From IMG/VR virus record IMGVR_UViG_3300038461_000154: 20,000 nucleotides of DNA. One strand, 5' to 3'. A model generated the notes under the pieces. That model did not search any database and was not told the DNA's origin. It was given only the letters and a program-made list of their open reading frames with translations. This document shows, in pieces, positions 4,534 to 14,999 of the stretch. This stretch comes from an uncultured virus (IMG/VR IMGVR_UViG_3300038461_000154). Its lineage: Duplodnaviria; Heunggongvirae; Uroviricota; Caudoviricetes. The translations under genes and the position numbers were made by a program. The stretch's first letter is position 1. Each line of letters begins with the position of its first letter.

Positions 4534-4931
4534 TCTTGATGCACCAACTGTTCTAACATATACTCACAATGAACCGGAATTGAATCTCCATCTATTTGCC
4601 GTTGTGACATTGATGACACACTCACCCTATGCCAAGCGTCTAGCTCGTATTCTACCAAACTACCAAATGTAATGTACGGACAAGGATAAACACTTTTTTC
4701 CCACCATCGCTGTAACCAAATCTCAAAAGTGCAGTTAGAATTGAACTGCAACTTGATGGTTTCTTTTCTGTCGGTTGGAAAACGAGAGCCATAATCTGTC
4801 AAACAAGGATTAATTAAATAAGGATTATTTGGGCTAAGAGAAAACCAACCTTTCATAGATAAGGTATCACTTGCCAACTTCTGGCTTAAATGTTCATGCA
4901 AACATTTTTTACAAATTACAAGATTTATCAT
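4527..4931 (-). CDS. CxxC...C...CxYxxEQ paralogue family protein
   Basis: VICKKC...YPCPY...IPVHCEYMLEQLV. Confidence 0.75.
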   Translation of the reverse strand: MINLVICKKCLHEHLSQKLASDTLSMKGWFSLSPNNPYLINPCLTDYGSRFPTDRKETIKLQFNSNCTFEIWLQRWWEKSVYPCPYITFGSLVEYELDAWHRVSVSSMSQRQIDGDSIPVHCEYMLEQLVHQEC

Positions 4932-5122
4932 ACTTGAAACATTTTCATATCTTGAGGATAGAGCAAGCCGTTTTCAACGCCAAACTGTGTAAGTGTTTTG
5001 ATTTGTATGGCCAAATCCTTTTCTTCTTCGGTTTGACTTATTCTCCTTTTTTTCTCTAACTGATTCAGGGAAACAATTAGCCTTGCTCTGACTTGCCCCA
5101 TTGATTCAGTAGTTGCAGTCAT
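4928..5122 (-). CDS. small helical hypothetical protein
   Basis: AAGGAG upstream of the ATG; ATGA overlap with the next gene; lies directly downstream of array block B. Confidence 0.65.
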   Translation of the reverse strand: MTATTESMGQVRARLIVSLNQLEKKRRISQTEEEKDLAIQIKTLTQFGVENGLLYPQDMKMFQV

Positions 5123-5164
5123 CTCTTGAACATTCTCCTTATCTATGCAGCACCTTAAAACAAA

Positions 5165-5422
5165 CAGCCCCTTCCCCTGCCTTCCAATGCGTTACTTTCC
5201 AGTGCTTTCCAGTGCTGTTCCCTTCCGCTCCCATTCACTTCAATGGGGAACTACGAATCTGGAAAAATGGCCTTTCCTCTCCGATAGCGTCCTTTCATAT
5301 CCATTGCTCTCCTCTACCTTGATTGCATTCAACAACAATTACAAATCTGAAAAGAGCCTTCCCTTTCGGTCCTGTGCATTGCTCTCATCTCCACTTCCAT
5401 AACATTGCTTTCCCTTACTTCC
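5165..5422 (-). repeat. pentamer (GNA-NN) array, block B: three tracts of about 12-15 units with two conserved linkers; putative guide ncRNA
   Basis: Minus strand, e.g. GCA-CT GGA-AA GCA-CT GGA-AA GTA-AC GCA-TT GGA-AG GCA-GG GGA-AG. Linkers GGCTCTTTTCAGATTTGTAATT (5358-5337) and GGCCATTTTTCCAGATTCGTAGTT (5272-5249). Confidence 0.9.
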
Positions 5423-5469
5423 ATTTTATACAGAAACAACCAATAGTTATGAAGACTTTTCGGTATAAT
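5423..5469. promoter_or_regulatory. divergent sigma70-like promoters, one for array block B (-) and one for the methyltransferase (+)
   Basis: Minus strand: TTCATA-17 nt-TATAAA (5430-5425) just before the first pentamer. Plus strand: TATAAT at 5464-5469, 5 nt before ATG 5475, with no Shine-Dalgarno, suggesting a leaderless mRNA. Confidence 0.5.
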
Positions 5470-5474
5470 CTTGT

Positions 5475-6236
5475 ATGGACTTGACACCGTTCCTAGACAA
5501 AATCATCTGTGCCGATTGTAAAACAGTCTTGCCTGATATCCCAAGCGAGTCAGTAGATTTGACTGTGATTGACCCGCCTTATTTCGGCGTCACTAAAGAA
5601 GAATGGGATGTAGAGGCTTTAGACGAAAATCTTGTCAAAGAACTGCATCGTATCCTTAAACCCACCGGCAACATTTACATTTGGTGCGGCATTGGTGAAA
5701 AATCCCAAAGTCTCATACGATGGTTTCCATTGTTCTCTAAATTGTTTCACTTCAAAGACTTAATCACATGGAAGAAAAATCGCGGTATAGGAATGCGGAA
5801 AGGCTGGCTCTATACGCGAGAAGAGTGTATGTGGTTTGTCAAAGACAACAGCCAATTCGTCTGGAATGTTGCGGAACAATACAGTACCGAAAAGCGGCCT
5901 TGGAACGTCTATAAAAAAGGCGGGGCAATGGTCAACAAATCTGAATTTAAACGTTTTACAAATGTGTGGACAGATATCAACGAAGTTGGCTTTGGCACCT
6001 GTCCTAAAAAATATCATCAAGAACGTTGGAAGTTTAACCACTTCACACCAAAACCAGTTGAAGCCATAGAACGCATCATAAAACTGCATACAAAAGAAGG
6101 CGATGTGGTACTTGATTGTTTTTTGGGAAGTGGAACAACAACAGTAGCGGCTAAGACTTTAAACCGCCACTACATTGGTATCGAAAAAAATCCTGAATAC
6201 TGCAAAATAGCTCAACAAAGAACTGAAGAAAGTTAA
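5475..6236 (+). CDS. DNA N6-adenine/N4-cytosine methyltransferase, beta class (N6_N4_Mtase)
   Basis: VIDPPY catalytic motif near the N-terminus; HFTPKP; VLDCFLGSGTT SAM-binding motif and YIGIE near the C-terminus. No cognate restriction enzyme adjacent. Confidence 0.95.
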   Translation: MDLTPFLDKIICADCKTVLPDIPSESVDLTVIDPPYFGVTKEEWDVEALDENLVKELHRILKPTGNIYIWCGIGEKSQSLIRWFPLFSKLFHFKDLITWKKNRGIGMRKGWLYTREECMWFVKDNSQFVWNVAEQYSTEKRPWNVYKKGGAMVNKSEFKRFTNVWTDINEVGFGTCPKKYHQERWKFNHFTPKPVEAIERIIKLHTKEGDVVLDCFLGSGTTTVAAKTLNRHYIGIEKNPEYCKIAQQRTEES

Positions 6237-6485
6237 CCCTTTCAATGCTCTACAATCCGCTCCTTTACATTGCTCTTCTCTTCAGTCCTCTCCGTTGTTG
6301 ACTACAAATCTGATTAAAAACCTTTTCCTTACAATCCACTCTGTTACTTTGCTTTGCTTTACGGTCCTCTCCTTTTATTGACTGCGAATCTGATAAATAG
6401 CCTCTTCCTTCCAATCCTTTACAGTCATATCCACTAGGCATCCGTTTCTTTCCATTTGTTTCCATTACCATCCACTGCAATCCTC
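6237..6485 (-). repeat. pentamer (GNA-NN) array, block A: three tracts of 16, 10 and 11 units with two conserved linkers; putative guide ncRNA
   Basis: Tracts 6483-6403, 6372-6323 and 6293-6239, e.g. GGA-GA GGA-CC GTA-AA GCA-AA GCA-AA GTA-AC AGA-GT GGA-TT GTA-AG GAA-AA. Linkers GGCTATTTATCAGATTCGCAGTC (6402-6380) and GGTTTTTAATCAGATTTGTAGTC (6322-6300). Confidence 0.92.
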
Positions 6486-6692
6486 TTATTTATTGCATGG
6501 AATGGGCTTTAATTTGGAAAGCCGTACAATTGAATCAAGTTGTTTCTTTACTTCTTTTGGAGATTTATAGACCATAGCAGAGCAGATTAAAATTCCGTTT
6601 CCATCACGCAAAGTAACGTTTTCAAGATTCCAAACACCATCAGGAACAACTGCCATTCCAACAACAAGACGGTTTAATTTTAGTGTTTCCAT
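6486..6692 (-). CDS. small hypothetical protein in the RAMP operon
   Basis: Strong GAGGAGG ribosome-binding site; its stop codon abuts the first pentamer tract. Confidence 0.7.
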   Translation of the reverse strand: METLKLNRLVVGMAVVPDGVWNLENVTLRDGNGILICSAMVYKSPKEVKKQLDSIVRLSKLKPIPCNK

Positions 6693-6703
6693 CTTACCTC
6701 CTC

Positions 6704-6967
6704 TTAACCTTGTGCGCCAGTGTTGCCAGTGCCTTGAATCTTGTATGGCTTTAAAAACACTCTCAAAAATTCCACGTCAAAATCAGCAATATCAACTAAA
6801 AGCATTTGTTCTTTGCTTAATGGAGTTGCACCACCGCTAAAACCAGTTCCATCATTGCGTGACCCTTGGTTGTACACCATGTGCCCTTTGTAAAAAACTT
6901 CTGTTTCCACGCAATTTGGATTGACCACAATACGAATTTCACCAAGATGTGGCTTGCGGGACTTCAT
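6704..6967 (-). CDS. small hypothetical protein in the RAMP operon
   Basis: Start overlaps the upstream gene's stop (6964-6967); 87 aa. Confidence 0.65.
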   Translation of the reverse strand: MKSRKPHLGEIRIVVNPNCVETEVFYKGHMVYNQGSRNDGTGFSGGATPLSKEQMLLVDIADFDVEFLRVFLKPYKIQGTGNTGAQG

Positions 6968-7461
6968 TTTTTATTTTCCAATTGCGGCTGATTATGTTTT
7001 CCAGAGAGTGCCAAAATGCCCATTGCTTGTCTGCGGATAGCTTTTTCCAAAGAAAATTGGCTCTCTGCTGTAAGATGATTCCGGTCAATCTCGCATGTTC
7101 TGGCGTGGTTGCCGATGTAGCGAGTGACGATTTTTGCTTCTCTGAACTCACGGTATTGTAACGCTTGTTCATCAGTCAAACAGCACAAATCGCCCCGGAT
7201 TACACGGCAAGTAAGAGGTTGGCTCCTATCGGCAAAATAAGACTCTACACGCTTGGCCAACAACATGGATTCAAACCTATATTCAGGTTGCTCCACTTGA
7301 AAACCAAACATCTTCTCCAAGTAGGATGCAGGAACAGTAGCACCCTTGTAGAGCTTATCAAATTCAATGGAATACTTCTGTAGCGACACTGGCACTACAG
7401 GGGTAATCGAAGTCTCTGTCTGTGTTCCAGTTACATTAATATCAACGTCTGGTTGACTCAC
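6964..7461 (-). CDS. candidate accessory protein of the RAMP/pentamer-array system
   Basis: Immediately downstream of the RAMP gene. AGGAGG precedes GTG 7461. LTCRVIRGDLCCLTDEQ segment is followed by long helices. Confidence 0.7.
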   Translation of the reverse strand: MSQPDVDINVTGTQTETSITPVVPVSLQKYSIEFDKLYKGATVPASYLEKMFGFQVEQPEYRFESMLLAKRVESYFADRSQPLTCRVIRGDLCCLTDEQALQYREFREAKIVTRYIGNHARTCEIDRNHLTAESQFSLEKAIRRQAMGILALSGKHNQPQLENKK

Positions 7462-7487
7462 ATCCACCTCCTGTTTATACCAAAACT

Positions 7488-8132
7488 CTATTTATTTTGT
7501 AGACTGAGAGATTCAGTCTCACTAATAACACCAGCGCCTTCCTTATAGCGAACATGCTCTGCTTTTTCGATTTTGAAAAGCCCGTATCTCGGACGCCAAT
7601 CGCTCAAGCCGATGAATCTTCCTGCGTTCTTTGCCGCTTCAAGAATTTGGTTGAATTCTATGACATCCGGCAAGAAGTTAATGGTCAACGTGGCAGACCA
7701 CGAATGGAAAATTGGACGAGTACGCATAATTCTAGAACGATTGATGACAACACCAGTCGTCAAACGGAAATTAAGGTTCTCGAAAAGTTGTTTGGAATTC
7801 TTTGGACCTTCATACTCCAAAAGAGTATCTTCACAAAGAATGCCGGTTGTGGCTTGAACACCTAGACGATTTCTTTTCGCGCCTGCCACAATCATTGCCT
7901 GAATGTTATCATCAGGCCAGATTACTTGGCTCTTTTCATTCAAGTACAACGAACCTTCATGTTCGATTCGCGCCATATCTTCATGGTCTTTGTCTGTCTT
8001 CTTTCTCTTTGATGTTATTTCCTTGAGTTTCTTTGAGTAAACATCAAGAGGATTTGCCAAGCGCCCGTTGTGTTGAATGGTAGGTGTCATGCCCGTGATG
8101 CGAATGATGGCCATATCGTAGCCCGGTATCAT
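7488..8132 (-). CDS. stand-alone RAMP/Cas7-like RNA-binding protein (Vipr-like effector)
   Basis: N-terminal strand IRITGMTPTIQHN; IWPDDNIQAMIVAGA helix; thumb-like hairpin VVINRSRIMRTRPIFHSWSATLTINF; C-terminal Gly-loop AGRFIGLSDWRPRYGLF. Start is ATG 8132 after AAAGGAGG (214 aa). Confidence 0.8.
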   Translation of the reverse strand: MIPGYDMAIIRITGMTPTIQHNGRLANPLDVYSKKLKEITSKRKKTDKDHEDMARIEHEGSLYLNEKSQVIWPDDNIQAMIVAGAKRNRLGVQATTGILCEDTLLEYEGPKNSKQLFENLNFRLTTGVVINRSRIMRTRPIFHSWSATLTINFLPDVIEFNQILEAAKNAGRFIGLSDWRPRYGLFKIEKAEHVRYKEGAGVISETESLSLQNK

Positions 8133-8297: not shown

Positions 8298-9272
8298 TTA
8301 TTTATTGTCGTATGAGTATTCGAATTCGGCAAATGGAGAATACACCTTGTCGTTTCCCATATTCATATAACATCTTACGCGATACCGCCACGACATTCCA
8401 CTGTCATCAATAAAGGAAGTTTGTTTTGTACAATCAATCACAGAAAAATCTCCCGCCGTTAAAGGAGCACGTTGGACTTCATATTTTTCTGCGTGTGTTG
8501 AATTATTTTGCCACATCAGTTTTATTTGGTTTTCTGAAAGTACCGCAACGTTTAGACTACTAGGTGCTTGAAGTAATGTTGTAATGTTTGTTTGTATTGA
8601 AGGCGACAAATTGTTTCTATAAAAAGCCACAACACAATATGAATATGTTGTTCCTTCAAGAGTAGTTGTGTCTGTAAAACTACAACGAGTAATGGTAGCC
8701 AACAATACAGCAGGTTGATTGCCTTCGCTTCTGAAAATTCTAAAAGCTTCTGTTCGTTTGTCTGTTTTTTCCCACTGTAAGATTACTTTTTTAAACATAA
8801 CCGTAGCAGTAAAATTGGTTGGTGCAGATAATAGTTCGCCGTCAACAATTCTCGTATTGCTTACCGCATAAATTGATTCTTCTTCCCCTGCCGTAGCTTT
8901 AATACGATATTGATAAATATTACCTATAATAACCGTTTCATCTTTCCATGTGATAGCTTTGGCAGCAGCATTACCAGCTTTCTTAAAATCCCCATCATTA
9001 ACCTTTTTTTCAATAGTAAAAGACCACAAAGTATTTGACCTGTTTTTCCAAGATAATTCTATAGTATGGTCAGATACTTGCCTGATTTTTACATGACTCG
9101 GTTCCACCAGTGTTTCGTTTATCCCAACATATTCTTCGTGGATAGGTTGCTTGCTAATTTCTACATCGTTCGGCTCTGCAATTTTTTCATGCGTTTTTGC
9201 GCACGTATTAGAATTTTTTCTACCAAAACGAACACCATTTAATACCATGACTTTATCCTTAAATATAATCAA
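8298..9272 (-). CDS. fibronectin type III repeat protein (about 3 domains)
   Basis: Repeated P..L.......I.L.W.......F.I.R.....(F/W).D......Y.Y.V.A......S pattern. Confidence 0.85.
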   Translation of the reverse strand: MIIFKDKVMVLNGVRFGRKNSNTCAKTHEKIAEPNDVEISKQPIHEEYVGINETLVEPSHVKIRQVSDHTIELSWKNRSNTLWSFTIEKKVNDGDFKKAGNAAAKAITWKDETVIIGNIYQYRIKATAGEEESIYAVSNTRIVDGELLSAPTNFTATVMFKKVILQWEKTDKRTEAFRIFRSEGNQPAVLLATITRCSFTDTTTLEGTTYSYCVVAFYRNNLSPSIQTNITTLLQAPSSLNVAVLSENQIKLMWQNNSTHAEKYEVQRAPLTAGDFSVIDCTKQTSFIDDSGMSWRYRVRCYMNMGNDKVYSPFAEFEYSYDNK

Positions 9273-12738: not shown

Positions 12739-14250
12739 TTATACTGCTTGTACCACGTTGCTATAACTATATTCGCAGTTTGAATGTGCTCGTATCCTAT
12801 AAAAACATGTACAAGAATCATTTTGCGTATCAGTACAATTGCAATGTTCTGAATCTAAACCAGCTATTGTTTCATATTTGTTTCCATCACTTGAACGCTC
12901 AACATTAAAACTATCTATTTTTCCACCGTTATAAGTCCACTGTAAAACAATCATGGTATATTCAATATAGGATGTTAATTTTGGGCTATCAATAAGCATG
13001 TCATTTTTTTGTATTATTTGGTTCGGTTTTATATCAAAAAATGTCATATGAGTATCGCTGTACTTAATTTCACTACCTTTATAAGCCTTGATACGATAAA
13101 AATAAATTGCCACAGTATCTTCCAACTTTTTATCCACGTATTCAAAATTTGCAGCAATGTTGACTCCGCTTTTCCTTGCAGAAACAGTAGCTATCCCTGT
13201 ATAACCACTATCATGGCTCGTAGACCGTTCGATTACAAATCCATCCAATGCACAACCATCATAGAACCACTCCAAATACACCATATTATTGTGTGACATA
13301 CAAGTTACTTCTGGAGTATCCATGGGCTTTGGTACTTCAGGCACAAATGTATTCACTCCAAACTCGTACCAAGCAGCATAAATCGTTTTATCATTATCAG
13401 CTTTGTATGCTCGTATGCGATAACAGTATTGCTTATTTGGTCCTGCATTTTTATCCAAATACGTTAAGGTAGTCTCCTCACCTTTGAGAACTTTTGCTAC
13501 CACTCCATAAAAACCAAGAGCACCTTCTTTCTTTTCTATCTCATAACCGTTGGCTAATTCAGAAGTGACTGCCCACTTCAATTCAACTCCGCTGTTTGGA
13601 ATTGCCTTAGCATTGACAGAAACTAATTCCTGTAAGACAGGACTAAGATTATTACTTTCATTGCTGAAGTCCGAGCACTCTGTGAATCTCTTGTTTTGGA
13701 CTTTGTATTTGTAGTCCTTGCCATATTCCACAGCGGAATCAATATAGCTAGATACTGCTGGAATAAGCGCAATTAGATGTTCATAGTCTTGTTTGTCTAC
13801 GCTACGCTCTATACACACGCTTGTTATGTTTGAAGAATTGAGTTTCCAATCCAATTTTATACCTGCCTCTTTGAATTTTGTAGCTGTCAAACCACTAGGA
13901 ACAAGTATACCGTTCATGGTTACTATTGCTGTGTTGCTGAATCCAGAAACTTGGTCATAGTAGTAAGCTTGCACTCTGTAATAATAAGTCTCACCTTCTT
14001 TCATATCAGAATCAAACCACGACATGCTCAAAAGTCTATCTTGACTTGATGAATCTACTTTTACAGGTGGCGACGTAAACTCTGTTGTTTGTGATTTGAA
14101 AACGCAAAAGCCGGTAGGATGAACTGGATACAACTTACCACCATCATATTTCCACGTAAGCTTTATCTGGCTACCACACAATCTAGCTTCCAAATTCGTT
14201 GGCTGCTTTATCCAACCCCTTGGCCTCACTTTGGAATTATTGCCAACCAT
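12739..14250 (-). CDS. fibronectin type III repeat protein (about 5 domains)
   Basis: Five repeats with IKLTW/IKLDW/VELKW/VYLEW/IVLQW, each ending in Y(Y/K/C)YR(I/V)xA-like strands. AAAGGAG before ATG 14250. Confidence 0.9.
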   Translation of the reverse strand: MVGNNSKVRPRGWIKQPTNLEARLCGSQIKLTWKYDGGKLYPVHPTGFCVFKSQTTEFTSPPVKVDSSSQDRLLSMSWFDSDMKEGETYYYRVQAYYYDQVSGFSNTAIVTMNGILVPSGLTATKFKEAGIKLDWKLNSSNITSVCIERSVDKQDYEHLIALIPAVSSYIDSAVEYGKDYKYKVQNKRFTECSDFSNESNNLSPVLQELVSVNAKAIPNSGVELKWAVTSELANGYEIEKKEGALGFYGVVAKVLKGEETTLTYLDKNAGPNKQYCYRIRAYKADNDKTIYAAWYEFGVNTFVPEVPKPMDTPEVTCMSHNNMVYLEWFYDGCALDGFVIERSTSHDSGYTGIATVSARKSGVNIAANFEYVDKKLEDTVAIYFYRIKAYKGSEIKYSDTHMTFFDIKPNQIIQKNDMLIDSPKLTSYIEYTMIVLQWTYNGGKIDSFNVERSSDGNKYETIAGLDSEHCNCTDTQNDSCTCFYRIRAHSNCEYSYSNVVQAV

Positions 14251-14296
14251 AGCCACACTCCTTTAATCTATTATGTGATGGCTTATTCAGAAAATG

Positions 14297-14735: not shown

Positions 14736-14999
14736 CTATTCGATTTTCTTCAAATGACCACTCACCAGCTTAGTCATTTCAAACATGTCTACCTGTTTCT
14801 TGCCGTTGAAGACTGGCTTGAGTTTTTCATCAGCAATAATGACACGCTTGTTCTTTTCGTCTTGCAGGTTGTTAGCTTTGATGTATTCCCAAAGCTTCTT
14901 GACTACTTGGGGTCTTGGAATAGGCTTATCCCCCACAACTGCCGCCAATGCTTCATCTGGTTGAAGCGGTGCCTGAAGCCCTAAACCTTTCTTTGCCAC
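14736..14999 (-). CDS. SWIB/MDM2 domain protein
   Basis: LAAVVGDKPIPRPQVVKKLWEYIKANNLQDEKNKRVIIADEKLKPVF...MFEMTKLVSGHL is a canonical bacterial SWIB sequence. AAAGGAG and TATAAT lie upstream. Confidence 0.95.
   Translation of the reverse strand: MAKKGLGLQAPLQPDEALAAVVGDKPIPRPQVVKKLWEYIKANNLQDEKNKRVIIADEKLKPVFNGKKQVDMFEMTKLVSGHLKKIE

Follow-up and report, generated by a model that had tools for sequence, protein, structure and literature searches.

The 20,000-nucleotide stretch analyzed here (the window) forms one end of a 126.6-kb uncultured virus record (IMG/VR IMGVR_UViG_3300038461_000154; 68% complete). Nine sequencing runs that hold most of the window's DNA are peat metagenomes; runs with small word shares (X9 to X13) were left out as evidence. 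Reading along the minus strand, the locus runs from a vipr gene through a vap1-like accessory gene, two small genes and three repeat tracts (A1 to A3) to an antisense methyltransferase gene and three further tracts (B1 to B3). The vipr gene (7488..8132, minus strand) encodes a 214-amino-acid RAMP protein; its start codon, following the protein collection, is the ATG at 8132, in a frame open from 8195. The vap1-like gene (6964..7467, minus strand; 167 amino acids) adjoins it, as a vap-type gene does in type II VIPR, and joined the Felixounavirus vap family through an iterative profile of vipr neighbors (round 3, E 1e-8); direct BLAST of its product against the Felixounavirus vap in locus L001 gave no match. 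Pfam had no match for vipr or vap, the ESM Atlas placed vap in unnamed viral clusters only, and a promoter and terminator scan stayed at chance level. The DNA methyltransferase gene (5475..6236, plus strand; Pfam N6_N4_Mtase, E 5e-43) overlaps with its stop codon the terminal GGTT of tract A3, which lacks the tail shared by other tracts; the gene therefore looks inserted at a tract-tail junction and is probably an insertion outside the VIPR system. Directly upstream of vipr lies a gene for a fibronectin type III protein (8298-9272, minus strand), similar by eye to a second repeat protein (12739-14256, minus strand), and a small protein (14736-14999, minus strand) presumably resembles a SWIB domain.

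Block A consists of tracts A1 (6403..6483; 16 GNA-NN units, one slip of register), A2 (6323..6372; 10 units, no slip) and A3 (6235..6293; 11 units at 6293-6239, no slip, then GGTT), all on the minus strand. A1 is followed by a terminal GGCT and a tail with the motif CAGATT (6373..6402, minus strand), and A2 by a terminal GGTT and a like tail (6294..6322, minus strand); A3 has no CAGATT tail. Block B, also on the minus strand, holds B1 (5331..5422; 12 to 13 units with slips, GGCT and a CAGATT tail), B2 (5242..5330; 12 units with a slip, GGCC and a CAGATT tail) and B3 (5166..5241; 14 units with slips; GGCT and then T-rich sequence at the end, without the CAGATT tail). The predicted folding of the tail, common to four of the six tracts, is weak (0 to −1.2 kcal/mol). 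A2 and A3 represent an 80-base duplication at 78%.

A preliminary description, made from the letters alone, had proposed a G-N-A triplet with free positions 4 and 5, and its reading of A3 was recovered exactly, unit by unit. In block A (37 units), position 1 is G in 33 and position 3 is A in 37, G is the commonest base at position 2 (G 17, T 8, A 7, C 5), and positions 4 and 5 vary, position 4 being A-rich. The slips lie, as described, in A1, B1, B2 and B3. Counted over all six tracts (5166-6483), the 75 five-base units have G at position 1 in 66, G at position 2 in 35 and A at position 3 in 75, the last figure arising partly by construction, since the parser placed slips to maximise G at position 1 plus A at position 3. 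A2 and A3, which need no slip, have 21 units between them, with A at position 3 in all 21, G at position 1 in 20 and G at position 2 in 9. The total depends on a re-parsing of B1 by hand; the other parse gives 76 units (65, 34 and 76, respectively). The 75 triplets comprise GGA (31), GCA (14), GAA (11), GTA (10), TGA (3), CTA (2) and four singletons.

The preliminary description had allowed that a different register might reduce the motif to the known GGY-NN. No internal unit in any tract is GGY, and an in-frame GG(C/T) closes all six tracts; these two observations fix the register, with GNA in the place of GGY. Runs of at least five G.A.. units occur in the 126.6-kb genome in these two blocks only, and the longest run is 11 units (4 to 6 in 50 local shuffles). 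Contigs from three other peat runs (X3, 5074-5575, 6186-6451 and 6454-7405; X6, 6250-6707; X7, 5312-5508 and 6353-6545) match the arrays letter for letter over the parts covered, so the arrays are not an assembly error.

GGA is also the core of CsrA binding. Its presence in the tracts would suit an RNA that titrates CsrA or RsmA in place of guiding, a reading we find scarcely credible: GGA makes up only 31 of the 75 units, the five-base phase is strict with variable NN, vipr and vap adjoin the tracts, an Rfam search had no match, and a csrA gene is absent from the 68%-complete genome.

The array is a real variant of VIPR, described in 2026 as an RNA-guided gene silencer related to CRISPR (10.64898/2026.04.26.720920). 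It shares with VIPR the tandem series of five-base units (10 to 16 here, about 9 to 16 in VIPR) with a fixed triplet and a variable NN pair, and its internal units lack the GGY/NN scaffold that is canonical in SUSP1 and P. fulva. The parts of that paper we consulted permit GGY "or a related consensus," which here applies only in the latter sense (GNA internally, GGY terminally), and its methods list the repeats NNNGG, YNNNG and NNNNG. Formally, GGA-NN falls within NNNGG, and GNA-NN within NNNNG if read cyclically; the accompanying text as consulted names no fixed adenine, no form with position 1 fixed and position 2 free, and no protein determinant, a comparison made apart from the logos of its fig. 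S17. COMPASS (10.64898/2026.10.21.760802) describes, in the text consulted, 21 clusters in which Vipr-like folds adjoin five-base units other than GGY; its named examples are GAC, CAC, WGT and TGH, and that text has no GGA, GNA or GCA, which its fig. S10 may include. Within the text consulted, the VIPR papers thus mention neither a natural GGA or GNA scaffold nor a residue determinant; figs. S17 and S10 and data S4 may show them.

The Vipr protein of the window matched the SUSP1 Vipr (PDB 36pp) in phmmer (E 1.5e-29), and its AlphaFold model (pLDDT 93) found as best Foldseek matches the Cmr and Csm RAMPs (TM about 0.5) in a fold library that predates the Vipr entries; together these searches point to the stand-alone RAMP with thumb and G-loop that typifies VIPR. 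The RAMP fold is common to Class 1 CRISPR proteins (Csm3, Cmr4 and Cas7); unlike those systems, the window has no CRISPR array or cas operon, and its predicted five-base code is gapped. The closest described system is the type II VIPR of Escherichia phage SUSP1 (10.64898/2026.04.26.720920; 10.64898/2026.04.26.720927; PDB 36pp), whose Vipr is homologous (about 36% identity of the window protein to Felixounavirus copies), and the SUSP1-like L001 protein stands in the same tree as the window Vipr, in a comparison that did not draw on the authors' type labels (data S4). As in SUSP1, the vap1-like gene lies directly downstream of vipr, guides have 10 to 16 units with a tail between them, and the SUSP1 contacts are retained for G at position 1 (H17 and D177), G at position 2 (R138 and W178), R179 and the DNA clamps (K33, R39 and K82). 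Unlike SUSP1, the window has GNA triplets with GGY solely as the last unit, a short, unstructured tail with no sign of a pseudoknot, two small genes between vap and array, a methyltransferase gene inside the array, and the replacements F14T, M68W, G176S, E71D, M72N and C173I. Among the named wall residues of the position-3 pocket, E71D, M72N, C173I and V175L (position 175 is T in the structure paper, as consulted, and V in the PDB chain) are changed; these do not separate scaffold classes.

To place the scaffold among its relatives, 165 Vipr loci were compared (163 fetched by protein, namely, the best 80 of 372 viral matches, the best 80 of 119 genomic matches and 3 more; one Felixounavirus locus; and the window). 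Pyrimidine-type arrays were called in 137, A-type arrays in 12 and a mixed one in 1, with no call in 15. In parallel, IMG/VR was scanned for ten GNA units plus GGY, with about 140 stretches estimated; among the matches listed, 69 of 135 were information-rich, and the 52 distinct ones comprised 46 GGA and 6 GCA arrays. The corresponding GGY scan gave an estimated 2,300 or so, with 125 of 135 information-rich among the matches listed. A Vipr-like gene accompanied 39 of 44 information-rich GNA loci with at least 3 kb of DNA versus 1 of 38 simple-repeat loci. Adenine at position 3 is thus not unique to the window, occurring in 12 of 165 loci and about 3% of strict IMG/VR arrays, mostly as GGA.

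The Vipr proteins beside A-type arrays span close and distant clades, so position-3 adenine recurs as a variant and is not one subtype. The preliminary description had suspected a new subtype, provided that GNA scaffolds were not already common; what survives is the departure from GGY-NN and the minority share just given, while the many Vipr lineages involved, the published NNNGG and NNNNG repeats, and the looseness of position 2 elsewhere weaken it. The window is the loosest at position 2 (G fraction, 0.43) of 117 loci with at least 14 units, the lowest pyrimidine-type value is 0.47, and 13 of 106 pyrimidine-type loci have 0.65 or less. Five IMG/VR loci (L173, L195, L198, L238 and L268) have mostly fixed GCA/NN units, and in four of the five a distant Vipr-like gene lies alongside. 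In L274 (247-812) and L267, GGA arrays have guides spaced by GGCAG plus 0 to 4 bases, without a structured tail.

Three residues outside the named wall follow the scaffold when alignment columns are compared across 137 non-identical proteins (11 A-type and 126 pyrimidine-type). W72 (SUSP1 M68; codon at 7917-7919, minus strand) and S177 (SUSP1 G176; 7602-7604) are each present in 9 of the 11 A-type proteins and absent from all 126 of pyrimidine type (Fisher p 1.5e-12, uncorrected for kinship), and T18 (SUSP1 F14; 8079-8081) is present in 8 of the 11 and in none of the 126. Of 265 collection proteins, 36 have both W72 and S177, 5 have S177 alone and 1 has W72 alone. When arrays were found first, GNA arrays led to 7 new Viprs of the close clade, 5 with S177 and 2 with C; 4 of those 5 show position 72, which is W in all. 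S177 falls within the G-loop, flanked by two named contacts, and W72 immediately precedes helix 1. T18, W72 and S177 likely reshape the pocket, the F-to-T change perhaps offsetting the M-to-W change, and a different triplet pocket, as the preliminary description had supposed, is probable. D75 and N76 were rejected as determinants, N76 being common in GGY systems and the commonest residue at its column (56 of 165 loci). For the loose position 2, the only candidate columns were clade-like, and none was common to the window Vipr.

The triad may instead mark a lineage in which other changes (e.g., D75, N76, I174 or L176) set the preference for A, an alternative we think unlikely but consider the most serious rival to the pocket reading. 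The counterparts of T18, W72 and S177 are not among the contacts named in the parts of 10.64898/2026.04.26.720927 consulted. The vap genes nearest to that of the window belong to other A-type loci, and A-type arrays occur without the triad both in the close clade (L011, L027, L225 and L271) and in distant clades, whose residue at position 177 is G, C, A, H or L. A tree of 50 selected proteins with the triad columns dropped scatters the triad (6 changes), but a single triad clade was not rejected (AU test, p 0.187), and independent pairs on well-supported branches number only 3, nearly always concordant (sign test, p 0.25). Independent origins of the triad are therefore unsupported, and of the idea that effector phylogeny would track scaffold type, the covariation of residues holds while common descent stays compatible. 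Against mere lineage marking, eight pyrimidine-type proteins nested among triad proteins (L002, L031, L032, L035, L051, L095, L154 and L159) lack all three residues, W72 or S177 occurs in 0 of 126 pyrimidine-type proteins, and N76 is too widespread to serve as an alternative. Single-sequence scans for close relatives with DNA found none; relatives known as proteins without a DNA record are P0002 (78%) and P0267 (88%, vap). Strict arrays are missing from the records of two triad loci with vap, L004, where the sole trace is a brief, degenerate run of GNA (4598-4645), and L009, which has no array; both are possibly guide-less systems.

We therefore favor, with considerable confidence, the view that the six tracts are predicted guide RNAs of a type II-like phage VIPR, whose G-N-A triplet likely stems from a remodelled pocket and whose position 2 is likely a loose scaffold base. 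By analogy with the SUSP1 structures, one Vipr protomer would bind each unit, H21 and D178 would read G at position 1, W179 and R139 would stack position 2, NN pairs would read two of every three target bases, leaving the third unread, and bound filaments would silence genes of rival mobile elements. In the window protein, T18, W72 and S177, replacing SUSP1 F14, M68 and G176, are predicted to hold the adenine at position 3, and position 2 is likely held only loosely.

The one-base-skip code was evaluated by scanning 691 decoded guides against the fetched DNA. A score of at least 17 was reached by six guides under a one-base skip and by no guide under a skip of 0 or 2; a skip of 3 recovered only the arrays themselves. 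A GGA guide of L274 matched a phage ATPase motif in L101 at 22 of 24 bases, found before any selection; of the 120 loci returned by a scan built on that match, 28 agreed at 23 of 24 bases and none at all 24. An A-type guide of L267, missed by a stricter guide caller, matched a helicase motif at 18 of 18 bases in six of 120 loci, and a GGY guide of L101 matched the same motif at 24 of 24. In all these matches the skipped base is the third codon base; the matched sites are homologues of true targets. The code thus has matches for two A-type guides from other phages, both adjoining distant Viprs without the triad, and none for the window guides. The guides in L267 (409-453, GGA) and L101 (4562-4626, GGY), from unrelated elements, thus both decode to this helicase motif of one phage family, one guide on each strand. 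Guides of related VIPR phages (L040, L060, L069, L072, L073 and L074) match each other's loci at up to 22 of 22.

With the skipped base located, position 2 could be compared with it. The preliminary description had suggested that position 2 might also carry information, for example, by pairing the skipped target base in a contiguous three-base code. All four bases do occur there, and the A2 and A3 duplicates keep position 2 at 7 of 10 units, much as they keep position 4 (6 of 10). However, a non-G position 2 equaled the skipped base in 3 of 18 cells of the six best guide-target pairs (two of them duplicates; 16 of the 18 cells from GNY guides) and in 1 of 18 for the A-type L267 guide over its six perfect loci, both at or below chance. 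One L267 unit, read by position 2, would demand Met where all six loci encode Ile. In the window, position 2 is independent of the neighboring NN (6 tests, p 0.16 to 0.88); in other loci the same tests gave 5 of 24 below 0.05 with no common pattern. The SUSP1 structures, as far as 10.64898/2026.04.26.720927 was consulted, bury the triplet in protein with the skipped base pointing the other way. We judge an informative position 2 very improbable; lacking a skipped-base match and dependence on NN, it is best read as loosened scaffold, and since it does not read the skipped base, the decoding rule stays as it is.

Target searches of public collections covered two of the six tracts, A3 and B2. A3 units 1 to 9 gave 6 matches in viral contigs, none extending fully (best, 20 of 22); A3 units 3 to 11 gave 64 matches in metagenomes, extending over 0 to 3 of 4 further bases, as by chance; and B2 gave 3 matches, none extending. 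Best matches of seven guide segments in the virus's own genome were at the level of shuffled guides, and the fetched loci held no target for window guides. These results, the slips in four of six tracts, the methyltransferase gene in place of the A3 tail and the near absence of arrays at the triad loci L004 and L009 would also suit decaying GGA arrays whose position 2 varies as guides go unused. We regard such decay as improbable, for it would strike all positions, whereas the slip-free units keep position 3 throughout and position 1 in all but one and lose G at position 2 in most; vipr and vap are intact with functional residues retained, and internal degeneracy is frequent in vrRNAs according to the portions consulted of 10.64898/2026.04.26.720920.

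A remodelled pocket with a loose position 2, as favored here, would bear on how VIPR systems recognize guides. The structure paper, in the parts consulted, has the SUSP1 position-3 pocket excluding purines (10.64898/2026.04.26.720927), set against adenine fixed there in a few percent of natural arrays, and the residue correlation names which change to test. GGY was changed to GGA, GAY, AGY and AAY in 10.64898/2026.04.26.720920, the text of which, so far as consulted, states that GGY perturbation abolished silencing. Guides with an adenine scaffold would likely be unreadable to standard VIPR proteins; if so, A-type and GGY-type systems would be blind to each other, a property relevant to multiplexed VIPR tools. 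What is new here is the correlation of the T/W/S triad with the scaffold and the orthogonality predicted from it, with common descent of the triad still compatible. Since adenine is fixed at position 3 in a few percent of arrays, GGY-based callers miss A-type guides. Decoy orphan guides have been reported in SUSP1 satellites, with guides called by a GGY caller (10.64898/2026.10.15.759431, in the parts consulted), and mutual blindness would bear on that conflict. Tentatively, and with more doubt than conviction, we propose private scaffold codes, in which the T/W/S switch would yield a G-N-A reader blind to GGY guides and spread by immunity to the GGY decoys of satellites or rival phages; escape from decoys as the driver is speculation. 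Such codes would mean that orthogonal VIPR pairs exist in nature and that scaffold preference could be switched by a minimal recipe. Other departures from GGY were seen among the loci: L150 has TGY/NN units, its Vipr carrying Thr in place of the Asp that reads G at position 1, and in L045 A-type and pyrimidine-type units both lie near one Vipr.
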